Below, piece by piece: positions 1 through 27,434 of a DNA stretch of 38,859 bases (the stretch's first letter is position 1; each line of letters opens with the position of its first letter). The position numbers and the translations under genes were made by a program. The notes under the pieces are model-generated. The model made no database searches. It saw only the letters and a program-made list of their open reading frames with translations, and was not told the DNA's origin. This DNA is from a virus (Duplodnaviria; Heunggongvirae; Uroviricota; Caudoviricetes): IMG/VR virus record IMGVR_UViG_2563366883_000017. One strand, given 5' to 3'.

Positions 1-1236
1 CTACGATAACCGCGCATTCAACATGGCTACCTGTTCGTCGTTCATGTCATCAATCCACATACCGTAAATTTCATACACCATCTGCGCAGTTTCATGCCCC
101 ATCTGGCTGGCTATAAACGCCGGGTTCGCTCCTGCCGTCAACAGCCAGCAGGCAAAAGTATGCCGCGTATGGTACGGATTACGGCGGCGAATACCAGCAC
201 GTTTTACTGCTGCATTCCATCTCGCACCCAAACTGCTTACCGAGTAATAAGGTTTCTGTTTTCCGTTACACACTCTGGGCATGAAAACAAAATGCAGTTT
301 TTGCTTTTCGGTTCTGCCGTACTCCCGATGATAAAAAGTGATTTCGCTTTTGCGATGATGCCCGGTCAGTTTGTATTGCTCCTTCAGTGCTTCAAGAGCA
401 GGCTGCAGTAGTGTTACCGTCCGGATCCCCGCATTTGTTTTTGGGGGACCGAACATATCCAGTATCGTCAGGTTTCTTCTGACATTCACAACTCCCTTCT
501 CGAAATCCACATCCTCCCACGCCAGAGCAGCCAGTTCCCCGTGACGAAGCCCGGAGTATACGGCAAATTTCCACAAGTTCTGGCTCTGTCCTTTTTCACT
601 TTCCATTAATGCATTGAATTCTGTTTTAGATAACGGGTCAGGCTTTATTCTGTTTCTCTGTAATTTCTTTACTCCTTCAAATGGTTTGGTTGATATAAAT
701 CCCGACTGATACGCAAAACGTAACAACGAACAGAGCAGGGCGATATAGTTATCAACTGTGCGCACGGTTCTTCCTTTTTTGTTGGATCTTGGATTATCCA
801 GGTAAAGCGTTTCTCCATGCAGCAGTTCATTCCGGTAGTTTAAGATATCGCTATAACGAATATGCGATATCGGAGTACTCTCACAAATTATTATCCTGAG
901 TGTTTTTAATTGTGATTTCGTTTTCTTCATTGTGTTTGTTGTTAACTCTGTTTCTTTAATTTTTGTCCAGATATCACAAAGCTCCCCGAACGTTTTTATG
1001 ACCCTCGTTGTCACCATTTTTGCCCCAGTGCTGGACTGGGGAAAACGTCTTAAATACTCAAACTCACCGGAATTGATTTCATGAACTATCAACGCTCTTA
1101 AATTCCCGGCTTTTTTAATGTTACTGTTAGTAACCTCCCAGCCTTTCAATGTTTCCCGATATCGTTTTCCTCGAAACATGAACCAGATGCGAATGTATTT
1201 ACCTCGAATCTCGACACCTGTTGGTAATTTAGACAT
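1..1236 (-). CDS. intR: Prophage integrase (tyrosine recombinase), 411 aa
   Basis: Full-length minus-strand ORF ending at window position 1-3 (TAG). C-terminal tyrosine-recombinase signature visible (HTRHTFACW ... YEIYG). Start overlaps the stop of the upstream xis-like gene. Matches my recollection of Rac IntR. Confidence 0.9.
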   Translation of the reverse strand: MSKLPTGVEIRGKYIRIWFMFRGKRYRETLKGWEVTNSNIKKAGNLRALIVHEINSGEFEYLRRFPQSSTGAKMVTTRVIKTFGELCDIWTKIKETELTTNTMKKTKSQLKTLRIIICESTPISHIRYSDILNYRNELLHGETLYLDNPRSNKKGRTVRTVDNYIALLCSLLRFAYQSGFISTKPFEGVKKLQRNRIKPDPLSKTEFNALMESEKGQSQNLWKFAVYSGLRHGELAALAWEDVDFEKGVVNVRRNLTILDMFGPPKTNAGIRTVTLLQPALEALKEQYKLTGHHRKSEITFYHREYGRTEKQKLHFVFMPRVCNGKQKPYYSVSSLGARWNAAVKRAGIRRRNPYHTRHTFACWLLTAGANPAFIASQMGHETAQMVYEIYGMWIDDMNDEQVAMLNARLS

Positions 1237-19021: not shown

Positions 19022-19450
19022 ATGGGTTTTCGTAGCGCATCAATTCTTACGTTGATTATTAGTGGGATTATTATCGGGTGCACTGATGCTGTATCGACAA
19101 ATTATCATGACCGTACATCATATTACTCCGATAAAGCAATAGAGACACAGTATGTGAGTTCATCTGAACGTACTTCTGATGTTAGTGAGGATATCCGTCT
19201 GTATGCCCATCAAATCAAGAGCGCCATCGAAAAACAGTTCGGGGATGCGAGTAAGTATTCAGGAAAAGAGTGTACACTGAGAATGCATATGGCCCCGAAT
19301 GGCCTTCTACTGGAGGTTAAAAGAGAAAGTGGAGACCTCGATTTATGTCGTGAAGCGATGAATGCGATAAAGAATGCTGATATACCTGCCCCCCCTTCGC
19401 CGGAAGTATATAAAGTATTTCAAAATGGGGTGCTGGATTTTAAACCCTGA
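19022..19450 (+). CDS. Lipoprotein with TolA C-terminal (domain III)-like domain, 142 aa
   Basis: N-terminal signal peptide with lipobox IIGC; C-terminal region YAHQIKSAIEKQFGDASKYSGKECTLRMHMAPNGLLLEVKRESGDLDLCREAMNAIKNADIPAPPSPEVYKVFQNGVLDFKP closely parallels the recalled E. coli TolA C-terminus (…CTLRIKLAPDGMLLDIKPEGGDPALCQAALAAAKLAKIPKPPSQAVYEVFKNAPLDFKP). Confidence 0.7.
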   Translation: MGFRSASILTLIISGIIIGCTDAVSTNYHDRTSYYSDKAIETQYVSSSERTSDVSEDIRLYAHQIKSAIEKQFGDASKYSGKECTLRMHMAPNGLLLEVKRESGDLDLCREAMNAIKNADIPAPPSPEVYKVFQNGVLDFKP

Positions 19451-19600: not shown

Positions 19601-19996
19601 GTGGGATTAAAGAAAATCGTTATGTTGACTTTTTGGGTCGGTTTTGTTGCGGGATGCACACCTTTACACCCTTCAGATTGCCACAAAACTACTGCTACAG
19701 GTAGTTGCAGTTCAGGACGCTGGGATGATCAGGATGAATGGGGGGCGCAAGCGCGGGGAATCAGAGCTGCAATTAATGCCAAACTTGATGAGCCGCATAA
19801 CTGGAAAGGGAAAAAATGCAGGTTGCATATGGAATTCTCTCAGGATGGCACGGCGTTAAAAATATCTACCAGTAACGGTGATAAAGCCTATTGCGAAGCG
19901 ATAAAGTCCGCAGCTCATAAAGCCAAATTTCCGGCCTTCAACAATCCGGAAGTCTACAGAGATTTTCAGAAATCTGGCTTTGACATGCGAGGTTAG
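19601..19996 (+). CDS. Second, more divergent TolA domain-III-like lipoprotein, 131 aa
   Basis: GTG start with GAGGAG upstream; signal peptide plus lipobox VAGC; C-terminal half keeps the two-Cys pattern and the PEVY-x-x-FQ motif of the first paralog (KKCRLHMEFSQDGTALKISTSNGDKAYCEAIKSAAHKAKFPAFNNPEVYRDFQKSGFD). Confidence 0.6.
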   Translation: MGLKKIVMLTFWVGFVAGCTPLHPSDCHKTTATGSCSSGRWDDQDEWGAQARGIRAAINAKLDEPHNWKGKKCRLHMEFSQDGTALKISTSNGDKAYCEAIKSAAHKAKFPAFNNPEVYRDFQKSGFDMRG

Positions 19997-20146: not shown

Positions 20147-20247
20147 TTGCATCGTCTCCAGCATATATATCAATTAAGGCTCTGATTGATGTGTCTGAAA
20201 GCCTACACATAATAACTATGCCATCCGTTCCGTGCGGAGGTGAGGCT

Positions 20248-20463
20248 ATGAAATCCATGGACAAAATTTCAACAGGCATTGCCTACGGCACCTCCGCAGG
20301 CAGTGCTGGCTACTGGTTTTTACAGTTGCTCGATAGAGTAACTCCGTCACAGTGGGCTGCAATCGGTGTGCTGGGTAGTCTGGTATTTGGCCTGCTGACG
20401 TACCTGACAAACCTTTATTTCAAGATTAAAGAAGATAAGCGCAAGGCTGCGAGAGGTGAATAA
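20248..20463 (+). CDS. Class II holin (phage 21 S-like pinholin), 71 aa with dual start (MKSMDK)
   Basis: [71 protein letters not shown]; two TM segments and a charged C-terminus; stop overlaps the endolysin start (TAATG). Confidence 0.85.
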
Positions 20464-20960
20464 TGCCTCCATCATTACGAAAAGTCGTTGCTGCTGCTAT
20501 TGGTGGCGGAGCAATTGCTATAGCATCAGTGTTAATCACTGGCCCAAGTGGTAACGATGGTCTGGAAGGTGTCAGCTACATACCATACAAAGATATTGTT
20601 GGTGTATGGACTGTATGTCACGGGCATACAGGAAAAGACATCATGCTCGGTAAAACGTATACCAAAGCAGAATGCAAAACACTCTTGAATAAAGACCTTG
20701 CCACTGTCGCCAGACAAATTAACCCGTACATCAAAGTCGATATACCGGAAACAACGCGCGGCGCTCTTTACTCATTCGTTTACAACGTGGGTGCTGGCAA
20801 TTTCAGAACATCGACGCTTCTTCGCAAAATAAACCAGGGCGATATCAAAGGCGCATGTGATCAGCTACGTCGCTGGACATATGCTGGCGGTAAGCAATGG
20901 AAAGGTCTCATGACTCGTCGTGAGATTGAGCGTGAAATCTGTTTGTGGGGTCAGCAATGA
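20463..20960 (+). CDS. SAR endolysin (phage 21 R-like lysozyme), 165 aa
   Basis: N-terminal signal-anchor-release-like hydrophobic segment ([20 protein letters not shown]) followed by a lysozyme domain; second gene of the lysis cassette. Confidence 0.85.
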
Positions 20961-21558: not shown

Positions 21559-23016
21559 ATGAATACATCTCATGTAAGAGTTGTTACTCATATGTGTGGG
21601 TTCCTGGTTTGGCTCTATAGTCTTTCAATGTTGCCACCAATGGTTGTAGCATTGTTTTATAAAGAAAAAAGCCTGTTCGTTTTCTTTATAACTTTCGTTA
21701 TATTTTTTTGCATTGGTGGCGGAGCGTGGTATACAACTAAGAAATCTGGCATTCAATTACGTACCCGTGATGGGTTTATTATAATTGTAATGTTTTGGAT
21801 TTTGTTTTCTGTTATTAGTGCATTCCCTTTATGGATTGACTCAGAACTTAATTTAACGTTCATTGATGCTCTGTTTGAAGGGGTTTCTGGAATAACAACA
21901 ACAGGAGCAACTGTAATTGATGATGTTAGTTCATTACCTCGGGCATATTTGTACTATCGGTCACAGTTAAATTTTATAGGTGGTTTAGGAGTTATTGTTC
22001 TGGCGGTTGCAGTATTGCCATTATTGGGTATTGGTGGTGCAAAGCTTTATCAGTCAGAAATGCCGGGGCCATTTAAGGATGACAAACTCACTCCCCGCCT
22101 GGCCGATACGTCACGGACACTGTGGATAACTTATTCTTTATTAGGTATTGCTTGTATTGTCTGTTATAGACTTGCAGGAATGCCTTTGTTTGATGCTATT
22201 TGTCACGGGATTTCCACAGTTTCGCTTGGTGGTTTCTCAACTCATAGCGAGAGTATCGGATATTTTAATAACTATTTGGTTGAGCTGGTGGCTGGTTCTT
22301 TTTCCCTGCTATCGGCTTTCAACTTCACTCTTTGGTATATTGTTATTAGCAGAAAAACGATAAAACCTTTAATCAGAGATATTGAACTTCGTTTCTTTCT
22401 GTTAATAGCCTTAGGGGTGATCATTGTTACCTCTTTCCAGGTCTGGCATATAGGTATGTATGACTTGCATGGAAGTTTTATTCATTCGTTTTTTCTTGCC
22501 AGCTCCATGCTCACTGATAATGGTTTAGCTACGCAGGATTATGCAAACTGGCCCACGCACACGATAGTGTTTTTGCTGTTGTCAAGTTTCTTTGGGGGAT
22601 GTATAGGTTCAACCTGTGGTGGAATTAAGTCACTTCGATTTCTTATACTTTTCAAACAAAGCAAACACGAGATAAATCAGCTTTCTCATCCCAGAGCGTT
22701 GTTGAGTGTAAATGTAGGAGGGAAGATAGTTACAGATCGTGTAATGAGGTCTGTATGGAGTTTCTTTTTTCTTTATACTCTCTTCACGGTGTTTTTTATA
22801 CTGGTGTTAAATGGTATGGGATATGATTTTCTTACATCATTTGCAACAGTGGCTGCATGTATTAATAATATGGGATTAGGTTTTGGGGCTACTGCATCGT
22901 CATTCGGAGTGCTTAATGACATTGCAAAATATTTAATGTGCATAGCTATGATTCTTGGTCGCCTTGAAATTTATCCTGTTATTATATTGTTTTCAGGTTT
23001 TTTTTGGCGCTCCTAA
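21559..23016 (+). CDS. trkG: Trk-system potassium uptake protein TrkG, 485 aa, AT-rich moron
   Basis: ATG 21559 (MNTSHVRVVTHMCGFLVWLYSL...); multi-TM protein; strongly AT-rich compared with flanks; a known Rac cargo gene. Confidence 0.9.
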   Translation: MNTSHVRVVTHMCGFLVWLYSLSMLPPMVVALFYKEKSLFVFFITFVIFFCIGGGAWYTTKKSGIQLRTRDGFIIIVMFWILFSVISAFPLWIDSELNLTFIDALFEGVSGITTTGATVIDDVSSLPRAYLYYRSQLNFIGGLGVIVLAVAVLPLLGIGGAKLYQSEMPGPFKDDKLTPRLADTSRTLWITYSLLGIACIVCYRLAGMPLFDAICHGISTVSLGGFSTHSESIGYFNNYLVELVAGSFSLLSAFNFTLWYIVISRKTIKPLIRDIELRFFLLIALGVIIVTSFQVWHIGMYDLHGSFIHSFFLASSMLTDNGLATQDYANWPTHTIVFLLLSSFFGGCIGSTCGGIKSLRFLILFKQSKHEINQLSHPRALLSVNVGGKIVTDRVMRSVWSFFFLYTLFTVFFILVLNGMGYDFLTSFATVAACINNMGLGFGATASSFGVLNDIAKYLMCIAMILGRLEIYPVIILFSGFFWRS

Positions 23017-23153
23017 TATATGGCTGATTTATAATTGTGAGTTTAATATTATGTTGACTCGCTCATTGATCCAATACCTAACTTTACCAGCAACACCTCC
23101 GCCCCCAGTAGCACTGGCTGCTGGGGTGCGTTTTATTCATAAAGCAAGGCTGT

Positions 23154-23942
23154 ATGAGCGAGAAATTAAAGATAGTCTATCGCCCATTACAAGAATTGTC
23201 ACCGTATGCGCACAACGCCAGGACGCACAGTACTGAGCAGGTGGCACAACTGGTAGAAAGTATTAAGCAATTCGGCTGGACTAATCCGGTGCTGATTGAC
23301 GAAAAGGGCGAAATTATTGCGGGTCACGGTCGTGTTATGGCGGCTGAAATGCTCAAAATGGATTCTGTTCCGGTCATTGTTCTGTCTGGCCTGACGGATG
23401 AGCAGAAAAAGGCGTACCGCCTGGCAGATAATCGCCTGCCGATGAATGCTGGCTGGGATGAAGATCTGTTGCGGATGGAGCTGTCGGACCTAATCAATGC
23501 TGATTTTGATGTCTCCCTGACAGGCTTCATCCCGGCAGAAATTGATGAACTGTTGACGGATGTTTTGCCCGGTACAGGAAATGAGGAGGAGCCGTATACG
23601 ACGAAAATTGATACGCCTGTTTATGAGCCGTCAGGCGGTAAACCGGATATCAGTGAACTGTACGACGATACGAAAACTCAGGAGCTGATCAGCCGGATAC
23701 GTTCGGCGTCCCTTGATCCTGATATTGAGAAATTCCTCCTGTGTGCAGCAGAACGTCACACGGTGTTTAATTTCAGCAGAATTGCGGACTATTACGCTCA
23801 TGCCCCCGCTGAAATTCAGTGCCTTTTCGAGGAGTCGGCGCTGGTGATCATTGATTATCAGCAGGCTATTGAAAATGGATTTGTCCGAATGACGCAGCGC
23901 ATGGTGGAGATCATGCATGGCGGGGAGGAGGAATATGCGTGA
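23154..23942 (+). CDS. ParB-like nuclease domain protein, 262 aa
   Basis: N-terminal ParB/Srx-like region (…PVLIDEKGEIIAGHGRVMAAEM…YRLADNRL…); possibly the full-length version of a gene that is truncated in K-12 Rac (ynaK, recalled with low certainty). Confidence 0.6.
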   Translation: MSEKLKIVYRPLQELSPYAHNARTHSTEQVAQLVESIKQFGWTNPVLIDEKGEIIAGHGRVMAAEMLKMDSVPVIVLSGLTDEQKKAYRLADNRLPMNAGWDEDLLRMELSDLINADFDVSLTGFIPAEIDELLTDVLPGTGNEEEPYTTKIDTPVYEPSGGKPDISELYDDTKTQELISRIRSASLDPDIEKFLLCAAERHTVFNFSRIADYYAHAPAEIQCLFEESALVIIDYQQAIENGFVRMTQRMVEIMHGGEEEYA

Positions 23943-24867
23943 TGATTTTTGCGCCTTTATTCTGACTCACGGGCGACCGGACAAAGTTCTGACTTACCGG
24001 ACGTTGCGTCGTGCTGGCTATACCGGGAAAATTTTTATCGTTGTTGATGATGAAGATAAGACACGGCATCAGTACATGGCTGAATTTGGTGAACAGGTGC
24101 TGGTATTTTCCAAAGCCGATATTGCTAGTCGTTTTGACGAAGCCGATAATTTTAGTGACCGCCGCTCAATTTTTTACGCCCGTAATGCCTGTTTCGACCA
24201 GGCAAAACTGGTCGGGTGTAAATACTTCATTCAGCTCGATGATGATTATCACGAGTTCCAGTTTCGGGTGGATCGCAACTATGACCAGGCCTATTTCCCG
24301 ATAAGGAAACTGGATGAGATCCTTTCTGAAATGCTTGCGTACTACGAATCAATACCTGCTCTTTCCATCGCTATGTCGCAGGGCGGGGATTTTCTTGGTG
24401 ACAATGGCGGCCATGCTTCGTGGGTGAAACGCAAGGCAATGAACAGCTTTATCTGTTCGGTTGATCGACCGTTCTCATTCATGGGGCGCATTAACGAGGA
24501 TGTGAATACGTACACGAATCTCGGTCGCTGTGGTGAATTGTTTATGACGATCGGTGCTGTCCAGTTAGGGCAGAAACAGACGCAGAAAAACAGCGGCGGA
24601 ATGACCGAGCTGTATCTGGATTCCGGAACCTACGTTAAAAGTTTTTACTCCGTCATGTATGCGCCGTCGTGCGTAAAAATCTCACTTATGGGTGCCAGTC
24701 ATAAACGCATTCACCATCAGGTCACCTGGAACAACGCTGCAGTAAAAATCCTTCACGAAAAATACAGGAAGAAGACACCCTGCATATCAATGGGGGTGAC
24801 AAATGATTCCGTATTCGAAAGTCGAGTCTCTGGCAGCGTGCCGGATGACTGCACAACAAATCGCTGA
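23935..24867 (+). CDS. Hypothetical protein, possible GT-A-like glycosyltransferase fold, about 310 aa
   Basis: GGAGGAGG SD before ATG 23935, overlapping ParB-like stop; by-eye motifs ILTHGRPDK and QLDDDYHEF resemble the N-terminal and DxD motifs of family-2 glycosyltransferases (weak evidence). Confidence 0.4.
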   Translation: MRDDFCAFILTHGRPDKVLTYRTLRRAGYTGKIFIVVDDEDKTRHQYMAEFGEQVLVFSKADIASRFDEADNFSDRRSIFYARNACFDQAKLVGCKYFIQLDDDYHEFQFRVDRNYDQAYFPIRKLDEILSEMLAYYESIPALSIAMSQGGDFLGDNGGHASWVKRKAMNSFICSVDRPFSFMGRINEDVNTYTNLGRCGELFMTIGAVQLGQKQTQKNSGGMTELYLDSGTYVKSFYSVMYAPSCVKISLMGASHKRIHHQVTWNNAAVKILHEKYRKKTPCISMGVTNDSVFESRVSGSVPDDCTTNR

Positions 24868-25054
24868 CGTTCTGGATGTTGATCTGAACCGACTGAAAGA
24901 AAATCGGGAAGCAATGACAGATTTTTATGCGGCCATCCGTAAGGGCAGAGCGAAAGGTGAAGCCGAGTTACGAGCGGCATTGTTTAAGCTTGCCAGAAAA
25001 GGGGATGCCTTTGCTCTGCGCGAACTACTCAGGGTGGATAAAAATCAGGACTAA
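24803..25054 (+). CDS. Small hypothetical protein, 83 aa, possibly HTH-containing
   Basis: ORF with SD GGGGGTGA before ATG 24803; immediately upstream of small terminase. Confidence 0.4.
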   Translation: MIPYSKVESLAACRMTAQQIADVLDVDLNRLKENREAMTDFYAAIRKGRAKGEAELRAALFKLARKGDAFALRELLRVDKNQD

Positions 25055-25057
25055 CTG

Positions 25058-26152
25058 ATGAGCAGACCGGACTGGGGGGCGTTGCAGCAGGAGTATATTG
25101 CTGAATACACCCGCTCCGGTATATCTCCGGTGGCATGGTGTGAAGCAAGGGGACTGAATTACGCAACAGCCCGTCGTTACATCAAAAAAACTCCGAAAAA
25201 TGCGCAGACAGAAATGTGCAAAACTGCGCAAAAAAGTGCGCAGAAAAAATCTGCGCAGACTGCACAAAAGCGGAACGAAAAATCTCAGGAAAAAAAGCCA
25301 GTATTCGATGCGGGCCTGAATGAGGGCGACGCGGAGGAATTTTCGTTCTGTCCCGATGAATTCGGCATTTCTGACCAGCAGGCTAAGTTTGCGATGCTTG
25401 TTGCTCAGGGTAAAAAGCCGACAGAGGCGTACCGACTAGCCGGTTATGAGGGGCAAGGTGCGACAGCTAACAGCAACGCCAGTCGTATGCTTAGAAATGC
25501 CAGGGTTTTTCGCGCTATCAGCTACTTCCGCAATCAGTACCAGAAACGCTATACCGCAGACCTGGATTTACTAGTGAGTCAGTTGATGGCTATTGTCCTG
25601 GCCGACCCCAATCAGCTTGCACAATTTCGCCGTGTTAACTGCCGTTATTGCTGGGGCGAGAATCATCTCTACCAGTGGCGCGATATAGCAGAATTCGACA
25701 AGGCAGCGGCGCAGGCTTCCAGAGATGGCAAACCCGAACCGGAATATGGAGGCCTCGGCTTTGTTGATAACGCCATACCCAATCCGGACTGCCCGAAGTG
25801 CTGCGGTGAGGGAACGGGACAGCTTTATATGGCTGATACCACTCTGCTTGATGGGGATGCGCGGCAATTATATGCAGGGGCAAAATTCGGAAAATTCGGC
25901 GTTGAGATCCTGCTGGAGGATAAGGCTGCCGCCCGGCGTGAATTGTTGCGTTTGTTTTCTGCTGGCGGGGCTTTATGTGCAGATAAGCGGCTACAGGAAC
26001 TGGAAATTGAACGGCGCAGAATGGAAAACCAGAAGCTGCGCAAAGAGATCGAAACGGTGGAAGATAATGAACATCCCCAGCCTGTGGCGATCAATATTAA
26101 TGTGGTTGATGCCAGAGTAAGGAGTGATGAAGATGATCTCTCCGACGCTTAA
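25058..26152 (+). CDS. Terminase small subunit (HTH N-terminus plus Terminase_2-like region), 364 aa
   Basis: N-terminal HTH (…GISPVAWCEARGLNYATARRYIKK…) and a central region typical of small terminases (…QQAKFAMLVAQGKKPTEAYRLAGYEGQGATANSNASRMLRNARV…); directly upstream of the large terminase. Confidence 0.6.
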   Translation: MSRPDWGALQQEYIAEYTRSGISPVAWCEARGLNYATARRYIKKTPKNAQTEMCKTAQKSAQKKSAQTAQKRNEKSQEKKPVFDAGLNEGDAEEFSFCPDEFGISDQQAKFAMLVAQGKKPTEAYRLAGYEGQGATANSNASRMLRNARVFRAISYFRNQYQKRYTADLDLLVSQLMAIVLADPNQLAQFRRVNCRYCWGENHLYQWRDIAEFDKAAAQASRDGKPEPEYGGLGFVDNAIPNPDCPKCCGEGTGQLYMADTTLLDGDARQLYAGAKFGKFGVEILLEDKAAARRELLRLFSAGGALCADKRLQELEIERRRMENQKLRKEIETVEDNEHPQPVAININVVDARVRSDEDDLSDA

Positions 26153-27434
26153 TGTGCCTCAGGCGCGATTTCTTTCAATGCCCCATAAATTTAAAGCCTA
26201 TATTGCTGGTTTTGGCTCGGGCAAAACATGGGTTGGGTGTGGCGGCATATGCAAGGGGATTTGGGAGCATCCAGGTATAAATCAGGGATATTTTGCGCCA
26301 ACGTATCCCCAAATTCGCGATATTTTTTACCCTACAGTGGAAGAAGTTGCTGCTGACTGGGGATTGAACGTAAAAATTAATGAGGGAAATAAAGAGGTTC
26401 ACTTTTATTACGGACGCCAGTATCGGGGAACCACTATCTGCAGATCGATGGAGAAGCCACAAACGATCGTCGGTTTCAAAATTGGTAATGCGTTGGTGGA
26501 TGAACTGGACATTTTGCCGAAGGAAAAAGCCAGAACGGCGTGGCGCAAGATAATTGCACGTATGCGTTATAAGATTGATGGACTTCGCAACGGTATTGAC
26601 GTTACAACCACGCCGGAAGGATTCAAATTTGTCTACGAGCAGTTTGTTAAAGCCGTGCGTGAAAAAACAGAGCTGGCCTCACTGTATGGTCTGGTGCAGG
26701 CATCTACTTTCGATAATGAAAAGAACCTGCCAGCAGATTACATTCCTTCGCTTCTTGAATCATACCCTCCAGAGCTGATTAAAGCCTATCTTCGAGGACA
26801 GTTTACTAACCTGACAAGTGGTACTGTTTACCATCAGTTTGACCGGAAACTGAATAATTGCGAAGAAGTGGAGCAGCCAGGGGAGCCGATTTATATTGGG
26901 ATGGATTTTAACGTTGGAAAGATGGCGGGAATCGTCCATGTGCTGCGTTTGGGGCTTCCATGTGCGGTAACTGAAATCATCAATGCCTACGATACGCCGG
27001 ATATGATCCGCATCATTAAAGAACGCTTCTGGCTGTATGATGGGAATGATTACCGGAAAGTGAGGGAAATTTATATTTATCCAGATGCTTCCGGGGATTC
27101 CAGAAAATCAAGTAACGCAAGTACGACGGATATAGCCCAGCTTAAGTAGGCTGGTTTTAACGTTGTGGTGAACAGCTCGAACCCGCCAGTAAAAGATCGC
27201 GTTAACTCAATGAATGCAATGTTCTGCAATGCCAATGGTGAGCGTCGCTATAAAGTTAATGTGAAGCGTTGCCCGTTATATGCCGAATCTCTGGAGCAAC
27301 AGGTCTGGGATGAGAAGGGGGAGCCTGATAAAAAATCTGGCAATGATCACCCGAATGATGCCGGAGGTTATTTCATCGTTAAGCAATTCCCTATTGTCAA
27401 ACCGACCGGAAGAGTCACATCACTTCGGATTTAA
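26127..27434 (+). pseudogene. Terminase large subunit interrupted by an in-frame amber codon (TAG 27147-27149); N-part 26127..27149, C-part continues in the same frame to 27434
   Basis: Walker A GFGSGKTW near the N-terminus; the 341-aa ORF and the following 89-aa ORF are in the same frame, separated only by TAG plus 5 codons; combined length about 435 aa is typical of a large terminase. Confidence 0.7.

Follow-up and report, generated by a model that had tools for sequence, protein, structure and literature searches.

Phage DNA glycosylation is a major counter-defence. To our knowledge, all known routes begin at a hydroxylated pyrimidine, and we know of no GT-A enzyme that glycosylates a canonical base. 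Recent surveys leave aside glycosyltransferases (GTs) without a hydroxymethylase or dioxygenase neighbour. Characterised enzymes of the TET-associated glycosyltransferase (TAGT) family act on DNA, as seen in T2/T6 (PMC13216743, PMC13390438) and in the TET-associated GTs (PMC8256090). JGT, the base-J enzyme of the family, likewise glycosylates DNA. The active sites of JGT and of the phage GT-A enzymes that act on DNA carry the pattern R...DDD...ED(Y/F) (bioRxiv 10.1101/2023.12.21.572611). Phage ParB-like proteins of the layout described below, which have no helix-turn-helix (HTH), activate their cognate DNA-modifying enzyme specifically on double-stranded DNA (PMC13229309), and DNA modification at packaging has been predicted for the ParB-terminase loci of phages (PMC4738411, PMC8256090).

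The DNA analysed here (the window, 38,859 nucleotides) belongs to a defective Rac-like E. coli prophage and runs from the integrase to the tail-fibre assembly genes. It is the home of a ParB-GT pair, and all features below are on the plus strand. The prophage is decaying: terL is inactivated by a CAG-to-TAG change at 27147-27149 (in comparison with strain EC2), 3.3 kb of capsid/tail sequence is deleted, and an IS is inserted. A terminator-like hairpin followed by a T-run at 23103..23126 (10 bp stem with 7 GC pairs, from a pattern scan only) closes the trkG moron and is the upstream limit of the ParB-GT-terminase block. An earlier note on this DNA described, at 23154-24867, a ParB-like ORF overlapping an ORF of about 310 aa by 8 nt, directly before the packaging genes. 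Both ORFs exist as described: the ParB/Srx-fold partner (23154..23942, 262 aa, ATG start) and the GT (23935..24867, 310 aa). A small ORF, terS, and terL come next. The small ORF (24803/24845..25054, 69-83 aa), for which PGAP gives the start 24845 and the name "hypothetical protein", resembles part of a small-terminase family (phrog_309, 8e-23). The terminase small subunit is at 25058..26152 (Pfam Terminase_2, phrog_51) and the large subunit at 26133..27434 (Pfam Terminase_6N). This order of ParB, GT, small ORF, terS, and terL fits the ParB-terminase (ParB-Tls) locus.

The two genes meet at a translational-coupling junction (23924..23942). The Shine-Dalgarno sequence GGAGGAGG (23924-23931) precedes the GT start codon (ATG, 23935-23937), which lies inside the end of the ParB gene (stop TGA, 23940-23942). 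The GT frame is open from 23917 (316 aa) or 23935 (310 aa), and PGAP picks 23935 in identical E. coli records. Both ORFs are intact in the decaying prophage. In comparison with 92-97% identical prophage copies, both show dN/dS of 0.06-0.14 (ParB ~0.12), which indicates purifying selection. Since the ORFs are as described, have family matches, and are under purifying selection, they are real genes and not chance ORFs. The ParB partner is the full-length form of K-12 YnaK, and the annotation "ynaK partial pseudogene", applied to an intact gene of 262 codons, needs to be corrected.

The GT matches the Pfam family PF20691 (TAGT) at 118.8 bits (cut-off 27.5; E 4.1e-34), over profile positions 4-205 of 205, and phrog_842 at E 8e-104. 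It had been described as having weak GT-A-like motifs, HGRPDK (23968-23985) and DDDYHEF (24238-24258). With these matches the GT-A identity stands, whereas "weak" does not. The key residues R14 (23974-23976), D102-D103-D104 (24238-24246), and N187-E188-D189 (24493-24501) are invariant in alignments of homologues. R14, DDD102-104, and E188-D189 correspond to the R...DDD...ED(Y/F) motif, with Val, not Tyr/Phe, after ED. Structure prediction, which the earlier note had proposed as a check, gives a GT-A fold. The AF2 model is confident in the core 1-215 (pLDDT mostly >80), and its Foldseek matches are GT-A enzymes only (glycogenin, ColGalT1, SpsA, RmlT), at a generic identity of ~10%. The sequence-profile search for a homologue of solved structure gave none at E <= 1, and the PADLOC and NCBIfam searches with the GT gave no match. 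The E. coli GT protein is named "GREB1-related protein" at NCBI. The sole fusion of the GT that was seen is to a class-I SAM methyltransferase, at one metagenomic locus.

Residues 216-281 of the GT (24580..24777) form a C-terminal extension that is basic and rich in aromatic residues and His (pI 9.8). It is conserved, with the invariant columns GGMTxLY...GTYxKSFY...RIHHxVxW. Most of it lies beyond the Pfam TAGT model, the match to which stops at residue 228 of the 316-aa form. The AF2 pLDDT is low in the extension although it is conserved.

The name of the GT in RefSeq and phrog_842, "beta-glucosyl-HMC-alpha-glucosyltransferase", is, on the sequence comparison, a propagated label, since the tblastn search with the GT against 50,697 phage records recovered 36 records and no T-even phage. 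The T2/T6 enzyme works on alpha-glucosyl-5hmC, for which a dCMP hydroxymethylase and an alpha-GT are encoded in the same genome; in the window, neither a hydroxymethylase nor an alpha-GT or a beta-GT was found. Homology of the 310-aa protein to an unrelated family, which the earlier note took as what would speak against a modification module, was not observed, since the GT falls in TAGT, whose characterised members glycosylate DNA, and the order ParB-GT-terminase matches the "ParB-terminase locus".

The ParB partner matches Pfam ParB_N (PF02195) at 29.3 bits (cut-off 26.3) and, over its full length, phrog_620 (E 1.7e-90). Its AF2 model consists of a nucleotide-binding domain (NBD, 1-95), helices (103-134), a disordered region (136-166), and a helical C-terminal domain (CTD, 166-255). 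The best Foldseek matches are Noc, ParB (ParB-CDP), PadC, and KorB (E 4e-6 to 1e-4). The motif N21-A-R23 is at 23214-23222, and the box II P-motif G57-H-G-R60 is at 23322-23333. In the HMM alignment to Noc/ParB, this GHGR falls on the GERR P-motif. The features of a partition ParB are absent. The TIGR00180 match (38.1 bits, cut-off 58.45) is confined to the NBD, and an LG(R/K)GL motif for interaction with ParA is missing from the N-terminus (MSEKLKIVYRPL). In the AF2 model there is no HTH for parS binding, since three short helices are all that separates the NBD from the linker, and no parA is annotated in the prophage. The word "nuclease" in the names of ParB-like proteins is historical. It is probably wrong for this protein, to which the earlier note had applied it; the protein is probably an NTP-binding domain of the ParB-CTPase fold joined to an acidic, GT-specific CTD.

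The NBD and the helix-helix region (HH) together form a module (aa 1-141, 23154..23576) that matches phrog_498 "DNA methyltransferase" (6e-51) and PADLOC MTase_II (1.5e-38). Of the 50,697 phage records, 429 contain it, in many cases as a fusion with a DNA methyltransferase. Among 45 sampled matches, 18 are annotated as DNA methyltransferase, including the closest ones outside the E. coli ParB group. The CTD (aa 167-255, 23652..23918) has a different distribution: tblastn with aa 140-262 hit 28 of the 50,697 phage records, all 28 of which are TAGT-positive. In a search of 1.84 billion proteins, 1195 clusters at 50% identity matched the CTD. Among ten unusually long or short representatives that were scanned, the CTD was joined to ParB_N only or stood alone, and there was no CTD-GT fusion of the Rosetta-stone kind. 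With a pI of 4.5, the CTD is acidic, and the whole ParB partner is strongly so (pI 4.5, net charge -24).

Between the module and the CTD is the linker motif Y148-T-T-K-I-D-T-P-V-Y-E-P-S-G161 (23595..23636). Its residues Y148, P155, Y157, E158, and G161 are invariant in proteins from E. coli, Lactobacillus, Nocardia, and haloarchaeal viruses. In the AF2 model, it contains a short strand (149-151) and is flanked on both sides by pLDDT <50. Vibrio proteins without the NBD still keep the YTxKxxxPxYEPxG linker motif and the CTD. The box II arginine is missing in the Nocardia and Porphyromonas versions.

ParB and the GT constitute a conserved two-gene cassette, usually at the packaging locus. Among the IMG/VR loci found with the GT, 79/80 have a ParB gene overlapping it; among those found with ParB, the GT is present in 76/78, and the overlapping junction is conserved. 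The one ParB locus without a GT that was examined for domains is a deletion chimera. In K-12-like derivatives, the GT is deleted. The same cassette is observed in Lactobacillus, Nocardia, Porphyromonas, and haloarchaeal viruses. GT sequences are 40-47% identical across Gram-negative, Gram-positive, actinobacterial, and haloarchaeal hosts, and the pairing persists at 27% identity in a Porphyromonas phage. The cassette precedes at least four unrelated TerL families. The order ParB-GT-terminase is also seen in phi jlb1, c5, NTR1, the Porphyromonas phage, and most of 38 diverse IMG/VR loci; in Vibrio jumbo phages the cassette is inside a cluster of replication genes instead. The mirror-tree correlation between ParB and GT is 0.67 overall but 0.08 among pairs below 60% GT identity, so it carries no weight here.

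The two genes could have unrelated functions, ParB being a packaging or partition nuclease and the GT an envelope-glycan enzyme of lysogenic conversion, similar to TarP or Gtr. The ParB_N family has been annotated historically as "nuclease" or "partition", and TarP is an example of a prophage GT-A enzyme that acts on teichoic acid (bioRxiv 10.1101/2023.12.21.572611). However, two functions would not explain the near-absolute two-way co-occurrence and the translational coupling, and GTs sharing 40-47% identity serve hosts whose envelopes share no acceptor. The pair lies in a late operon behind a terminator, which does not correspond to the expression of a lysogen moron, and the score below the TIGR00180 cut-off and the lack of parA and HTH stand against partition. 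The conservation across domains, the coupling, and the missing HTH and parA led us to reject the cell-envelope and partition/nuclease readings, which we regard as scarcely credible.

Neither TET/JBP, nor a thymidylate-synthase-like hydroxymethylase, nor another base-activating enzyme was found in the window, from the integrase to tail-fibre assembly, with Pfam on sizeable ORFs beyond those annotated by PGAP in the matching E. coli records. No TET/JBP or hydroxymethylase is recurrent among the families listed for 173 clusters of neighbour proteins from the 38 diverse loci (the best 25 families; the remaining ones are singleton families with weaker E-values). In the complete small phage genomes of c5 and phi jlb1, no acceptor-making enzyme is annotated, and three hypothetical ORFs of c5 that were scanned have no Pfam match. 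The pair without a dioxygenase is the rule, in the 38 diverse loci as well as in complete genomes of virulent and temperate phages. No TET/JBP (5mYOX) enzyme or other source of 5-hydroxymethylpyrimidine was thus seen near this TAGT. Such an enzyme being absent or not recurrent, the known acceptor for a DNA GT is not available; because a source of 5hmC or 5hmU is absent, the acceptor of the GT is probably not a hydroxymethylpyrimidine.

The GT might need 5hmC or 5hmU from a dioxygenase or hydroxymethylase lost in the lineage, so that the Rac-type pair would be functionless cargo. All characterised DNA-acting TAGTs use a hydroxymethylpyrimidine or its glucoside (PMC13216743, PMC8256090), the prophage is decaying, and K-12-like derivatives have lost the GT. 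This explanation is nevertheless very improbable. It is in conflict with the two intact ORFs and their dN/dS of 0.06-0.14, and with the pair lacking a dioxygenase as a rule and still retaining 27-47% identity between phyla and between domains.

The missing-acceptor problem disappears if the GT O-glycosylates protein rather than DNA. This is the main rival, and we consider it unlikely. GREB1, of the TAGT superfamily, is reported to O-GlcNAcylate ER-alpha (PMC7968844), and the highest-ranking Foldseek matches include glycogenins, collagen galactosyltransferase, and peptide S-glycosyltransferases, although these fold matches are generic to GT-A at ~10% identity. The most economical target would be the ParB partner itself, at the invariant Tyr/Thr of its linker, in a priming similar to that of glycogenin, with YTTKIDTPVYEPSGGK as the candidate peptide; packaging or host proteins would be other targets. 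No protein other than the partner invariably accompanies the GT, its invariant Tyr/Thr motif is in a disordered linker, and this motif and the CTD survive where the NBD is lost. On the other hand, the NBD-HH module of the partner is common to DNA methyltransferase fusions, and the genomic slot, at the packaging locus or in the replication cluster, points to DNA. A function for a glycosylated ParB is not evident.

The GT might also act on another nucleic acid or on nucleotides, such as RNA/tRNA hydroxyls, NTP pools, or second messengers of defence, with the ParB NBD as a nucleotide-binding subunit. ParB-CTPase folds bind various NTPs and some are kinases, for example SerK and Srx (PMC12704722; Foldseek matches), AvpGT with Ara-A, a GT-A enzyme that glycosylates a nucleoside, is among the Foldseek matches, and a universal small-molecule acceptor would account for the conservation in bacteria and archaea. 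We consider this improbable, as the NBD is dispensable in Vibrio phages and the P-motif arginine is lost in some lineages. Neither the 38 loci nor the 10 CTD matches revealed a fusion or neighbourhood tie to RNA or nucleotide metabolism, and PADLOC has no match for the GT.

For the pair as a whole, we give about an even chance to an enzyme of the "ParB-terminase locus" type: a two-subunit DNA glycosyltransferase, expressed late and acting after replication, whose acceptor is not a hydroxymethylpyrimidine. Family membership, intact catalytic motifs, coupling, two-way co-occurrence, the terminase neighbourhood, and purifying selection argue for this reading. The GT would be the catalytic subunit, a metal- and NDP-sugar-dependent GT-A enzyme, and the ParB-fold protein its obligate, co-translated partner. 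The NTP-binding ParB-CTPase module may deliver the GT to double-stranded DNA or activate it there, while the acidic CTD and the YTxKxxxPxYEPxG linker would dock the GT non-covalently, probably on its basic C-terminal extension. Transcribed as the first genes of the late operon and followed closely by terS/terL, the pair would glycosylate replicated phage DNA shortly before or during packaging, and the sugar on the injected DNA may guard it against host nucleases. DNA as the acceptor, the ParB-GT binding, the timing, and the protective role, including one against restriction, are inferences. Several observations fit less well. A strongly acidic ParB without HTH would be an unusual DNA loader, the Nocardia and Porphyromonas versions have lost the box II arginine, and no acceptor-making enzyme was found. 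The proposal of the earlier note that the pair is a DNA-modification module is partly supported, by the TAGT identity, the coupling, and the ParB-terminase-locus arrangement, and is weakened by the absence of the acceptor-making enzyme and by GREB1, which is reported to act on protein. Literature searches on HHTV-2, Rac, and YnaK gave nothing relevant on DNA modification, and no experimental data of this kind were found for any phage that carries the pair.

A bolder form of the DNA glycosyltransferase reading, which we offer tentatively and hold to be rather unlikely, is that the ParB-TAGT pair puts the sugar on DNA made of canonical, at most host-methylated, bases, with ParB opening or presenting the double strand. 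The sugar could be attached to a base, at a ring or exocyclic nitrogen, or else to an oxygen in the backbone or at a terminus. If this is true, there would be a class of DNA glycosylation independent of 5-hydroxymethylpyrimidines, with carriers that number thousands among the temperate phages of bacteria and archaea and include about 1 in 6 complete E. coli genomes. More generally, a large branch of orphan GTs is not solitary: in bacterial phyla and in archaea alike, it comes with a ParB-fold partner of its own. Modification of DNA by the pair would point to an acceptor chemistry not recognised before, and ParB cofactors of DNA-modifying enzymes would then be known from two cases; modification of protein would give prokaryotic viruses their counterpart of GREB1. 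At 1.7 kb the system is compact, it is native to E. coli, and it can be tested directly there.

Among known systems, 5mYOX176/ParB176 (O'Toole et al. 2026, PMC13229309) is similar in the architecture of the partner: a small phage ParB with an NBD, a helix-helix region, a disordered linker of ~30-50 aa, and a CTD, without HTH. In both, the ParB gene adjoins the gene for a post-replicative DNA-modifying enzyme (a putative one here), often near terminase and GTs (PMC13229309). According to the published description, the spacing of N-x-R, Ser, and GxxR is also similar, with N14/R16/S29/R56 in ParB176 (PMC13229309) and N21/R23/S36/R60 here. The difference is in the enzyme, which is here a GT-A glycosyltransferase with no dioxygenase present: the neighbour of ParB is TAGT (79/80 and 76/78 loci), and no 5mYOX is among the families listed for the 38 loci.

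The TET/JBP-associated GTs, trypanosome JGT, and the T2/T6 beta-glucosyl-HMC-alpha-glucosyltransferase share PF20691, the GT-A fold, and the R...DDD...ED signature with the GT. They act on 5hmC, 5hmU, or glucosyl-5hmC supplied by a TET/JBP dioxygenase or a dCMP hydroxymethylase, a supplier that is missing here. Two features set the GT of the pair apart from them: a conserved C-terminal extension, basic and ~60 aa long, and a partner of its own that bears the ParB CTD. GREB1 is of the same glycosyltransferase superfamily, TAGT, but is a large multidomain cytoplasmic protein of animals that is reported to O-GlcNAcylate ER-alpha (PMC7968844); it lacks a ParB partner and is not connected with the packaging of viruses.

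The ParB-DNA methyltransferase fusions and ParB-Tls loci (Iyer et al.; PMC4738411; phrog_498) have a homologous NBD-HH module, with up to ~55% identity over 135 aa. In PMC4738411, such ParB-methyltransferases are placed at the ParB-terminase locus, and DNA modification during packaging is predicted. Unlike these fusions, the modifying enzyme here is a separate polypeptide, probably held through the GT-specific CTD, and the predicted transfer is glycosyl, not methyl. The T4 alpha-glucosyltransferase with the gp45 sliding clamp (PMC13216743) is similar in concept only, as a DNA GT tethered to an accessory protein that encircles DNA. The folds are unrelated (GT-B and a PCNA-like clamp in T4), and the T4 system is coupled to replication, with its acceptor 5hmC made before replication (PMC13216743).

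The ParB-like ORF (23154-23942, + strand, 262 aa) and the glycosyltransferase ORF (GT; 23935-24867, + strand, 310 aa) lie where the earlier note had placed them. They overlap by 8 nt, as it had described, with the GT ATG at 23935 and the ParB TGA at 23940-23942, and the motifs HGRPDK (from 23968-23985) and DDDYHEF (from 24238-24258) are translated as reported. The GT ORF has another in-frame ATG upstream at 23917. The true start is almost certainly 23935, not 23917, because GGAGGAGG (23924-23931) precedes the ATG at 23935, which is in overlap with the ParB TGA. The PGAP start is also 23935. In records identical to the window, the GT is labelled "hypothetical" or "GREB1-related". In the same kind of records, PGAP calls ynaK, the K-12 name of the ParB gene, "incomplete, missing C-terminus", with the first 86 codons only (20155-20943 in the loci L001 and L002). 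The ynaK ORF at 23154-23942 is an intact frame of 262 codons, which matches a full-length phage family. As a guess, the 87-aa K-12 fragment may be behind the partial annotation.

The whole window is an E. coli prophage of the lambdoid Rac type, complete but defective, with the integrase (1-1236, minus strand) at one end. Next come recT/recE, kilR and sieB, then the genes for immunity and replication, a Q-like antiterminator, the lysis cassette (essD/rrrD/rzpD) and the trkG moron, and last the genes for packaging, head and tail. Between trkG and the ParB-GT pair lies a strong terminator-like hairpin (23103-23126); thus, the pair heads a block running into a small ORF, terS (25058-26152) and terL (26133-27434). 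The region 23000-25100 was matched in 1610 of 5426 complete E. coli genomes, 867 of which cover at least 80% of it. terL carries a nonsense codon (CAG to TAG at 27147-27149, with strain EC2 as the reference), ~3.3 kb of capsid, head-tail and tail-tube genes are deleted at about 31389, and a Mutator-family IS transposase (36585-37793) interrupts the tail region. Despite these defects, the ParB and GT genes are intact. Both show dN/dS of 0.06-0.14 against copies 92-97% identical, and both are under purifying selection. It is very unlikely that the pair is a functionless remnant that has lost its dioxygenase, since it is under selection and the form without a dioxygenase is universal.

Two other regions of the prophage were observed. 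A low-GC (33-36%) island at 11779-14781 contains three ORFs (11779-12870, 12881-14128 and 14098-14781), which match PADLOC Hp1, Hp2 and Hp3 (PDLC03004-03006) with E-values of 5e-41, 1e-10 and 4e-11, and have no matches in Pfam and NCBIfam. The island is not at this position in strain EC2, and strain 30COLEC keeps it in a form broken by an ISApl1 insertion. It appears to be a candidate anti-phage system of three genes, riding as a prophage moron. Upstream of the lysis cassette, two tandem ORFs (19022-19450 and 19601-19996) have TolA C-terminal domains; in the corresponding places, PGAP has a partial tolA and a protein with a TolA-C domain. Possible roles are superinfection exclusion or a decoy function in colicin or phage entry.

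The label "weak GT-A-like" in the earlier note understated the GT, which scores 118.8 bits on PF20691 (TAGT, "TET-associated glycosyltransferase") against a cut-off of 27.5 (E 4e-34). It also matches phrog_842 (8e-104), and its NCBI name is "GREB1-related protein". The structure prediction proposed in that note was obtained with AlphaFold2, and gives a confident Rossmann-like GT-A core at residues 1-215. In the PDB, the model, built like that of ParB on a shallow alignment (at least 55% identity), is matched by Foldseek exclusively to GT-A enzymes at ~10% identity, including glycogenin, ColGalT1, SpsA and RmlT. No solved homologue was found by sequence profile. From E. coli to haloarchaeal viruses, R14, D102-D103-D104 and E188-D189 do not vary. 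These residues correspond to R...DDD...ED(Y/F), the catalytic signature described for trypanosome JGT and for phage DNA GT-A enzymes (10.1101/2023.12.21.572611). The GT is thus assigned to PF20691 by sequence, predicted fold and motifs, without the eponymous context of that family, the association with TET/JBP. A 60-residue segment at residues 216-281, largely past the Pfam model, is highly conserved, aromatic/histidine-rich and basic (pI 9.8, net charge +7), and is modelled with low confidence. The name of the T2/T6 enzyme has been spread onto the GT by RefSeq and PHROG; a test of this membership was negative.

The N-terminus of ParB is a ParB/Srx domain. In the profile alignment to Noc/ParB, G57-H-G-R60 coincides with GERR, the phosphate-binding motif of box II, and N21-x-R23 with the QPR element. 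The box II arginine is lost in the Nocardia and Porphyromonas ParB proteins. In the model, a nucleotide-binding domain (NBD, 1-95) leads through three short helices (103-134) and a disordered linker (136-166) to a helical C-terminal domain (CTD, 166-255), with no HTH domain; its best Foldseek matches are Noc, CDP-bound ParB, PadC and KorB. The TIGR00180 score is under the cut-off, and no parA is annotated anywhere in the prophage. The protein belongs to the ParB-CTPase fold and not to the partition ParBs. It is very acidic (pI 4.5, net charge -24), with -10 in the CTD and -9 in the helix-helix segment. This charge, opposite to that of the basic GT segment (24580-24777), could serve for docking or for masking of a DNA-binding surface. 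The linker carries the motif Y148-T-x-K-x-x-x-P-x-Y-E-P-x-G161, in which Y148, P155, Y157, E158 and G161 are invariant. The GT could glycosylate protein, most simply its own partner ParB at the invariant Tyr/Thr of this motif; such an acceptor, which we consider rather unlikely, is favored by GREB1 (PMC7968844) and by the matches to glycogenin-like folds.

A tblastn search with the GT against 50,697 phage records found 36, from phages of Escherichia, Salmonella, Lactobacillus gasseri and L. delbrueckii, Nocardia phage NTR1, Vibrio jumbo phages, Porphyromonas phages and the haloarchaeal virus HHTV-2, with 27-47% identity outside Escherichia and Salmonella phages. In four of five relatives examined (phi jlb1, c5, NTR1 and a Porphyromonas phage), a ParB-like gene overlaps the GT start, and terminase genes follow directly or past one or two small ORFs. 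The c5 pair, ORF1 and ORF2 of this cos phage, comes straight after cos. In HHTV-2, ~3 kb with eight small ORFs separates the overlapping pair from terL downstream. The family profile matches the Porphyromonas ParB across both domains (99.2% probability), even though its partner GT is only 27% identical.

In IMG/VR loci, sampled with a bias to enterobacterial prophages, the coupling is seen from both sides. With the GT as the seed, 79 of 80 loci have a ParB ORF of two domains that runs into the start of the GT; in the exception, L082, ParB is 3 kb upstream of the GT. With ParB as the seed, the GT is immediately downstream in 76 of 78 new loci. One exception (L112) is a deletion chimera with ParB fused to tail protein J, and the other (L125) has no GT, probably lost by a similar deletion. 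Unrelated functions, a ParB nuclease beside an envelope GT, are highly improbable. Among 38 diverse loci, the downstream terminases belong to at least four unrelated TerL Pfam families (Terminase_6N, Terminase_3, TerL_ATPase and GpA_ATPase) and are accompanied by several portal families, indicating that the cassette follows the packaging position, not a single phage lineage. In L082 (6001-7719, IMGVR_UViG_3300047160_004028), the TAGT domain is naturally fused to a SAM-dependent methyltransferase domain of class I (Methyltransf_12/23/25/11), which may methylate the installed sugar or the acceptor.

The two halves of ParB have different distributions. The linker motif and CTD (aa 140-262) were found in only 28 of the 50,697 phage records, all 28 GT-positive. 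The CTD family comprises 1195 clusters in 1.84 billion representative proteins, and in ten unusually long or short matches scanned, ParB_N is the sole domain attached to the CTD, or the CTD is alone. The NBD-helix module (aa 1-141) is far commoner, with 429 phage records at E <= 1e-10. Its nearest relatives outside the E. coli ParB group are N-termini of proteins annotated as DNA methyltransferases (~55% identity); 18 of 45 evenly sampled matches carry this annotation, and the module matches phrog_498 "DNA methyltransferase" (6e-51) and the PADLOC MTase_II profile (1.5e-38). Thus, one NBD module is either covalently fused to a predicted DNA methyltransferase or, as in the window, bears a CTD found only with the GT. 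Of the internal arguments for the CTD as a GT adaptor and for DNA as the GT substrate, this swap is the strongest. In the Vibrio jumbo phages phiKT1024 and pv27 (L089 8950-10379; L169 19459-20888), an NBD-less variant was observed, a 139-aa ORF of the linker motif and CTD only. It is followed by a ~8-nt gap and a 333-aa GT, and the cassette sits in a replication-gene cluster (clamp, SSB, primase and helicases), not beside the terminase.

The earlier note had suggested a DNA-modification or anti-defence module. We give about an even chance that the pair forms a DNA glycosyltransferase of two subunits, which acts after replication and belongs to the ParB-terminase locus type. The CTD and motif would bind the GT, perhaps ordering its basic extension, and the NBD would give access to duplex DNA. 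Being expressed first in the late operon, the pair would modify DNA in time with packaging, and the product would protect incoming DNA. Every characterized DNA-acting TAGT uses 5hmC, 5hmU or glucosyl-5hmC as the acceptor (PMC13216743, PMC13390438, PMC8256090). No TET/JBP dioxygenase or thymidylate-synthase-like hydroxymethylase was found in the prophage, and neither was found among the recurrent families of the 38 loci (the top 25 families of each set, from ORFs of 140 aa or more within 4 kb), whose singletons include one C5 and one N6/N4 methyltransferase. No acceptor-making enzyme is annotated in the complete genomes of c5 (31.8 kb) and phi jlb1 (38.3 kb), and three hypothetical ORFs of c5 scanned with Pfam had no matches. 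Thus, the known acceptor appears not to be available. Glycosylation of DNA of canonical bases only is doubtful, and a nucleotide or RNA acceptor is still less probable.

The ParB-terminase locus type is known from computational work, and Aravind and co-workers predicted a role for such loci in modifying phage DNA as it is packaged (cited in PMC4738411 and PMC8256090). "Solitary" TAGTs have been noted in recent surveys without explanation (PMC13216743; 10.1101/2023.12.21.572611). The near-absolute two-way coupling of the GT to a dedicated ParB CTD, the module-swap relation to ParB-methyltransferase fusions, the spread of the cassette over bacterial phyla and archaea, and the documented absence of a recurrent or detectable acceptor-generating enzyme are new here, and part of them may have been drawn already in Iyer et al. 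2013. A study in 2026 reported that phage ParB-like proteins activate a cognate DNA dioxygenase specifically on dsDNA, and that mutations in their NTP motifs are surprisingly tolerated (PMC13229309). Such tolerance is consistent with the Nocardia and Porphyromonas ParB proteins, which have lost the box II arginine. The ParB176-type proteins of that study and the ParB of the window share the same layout: an NBD, a helix-helix segment, a disordered linker and a CTD, without an HTH domain.
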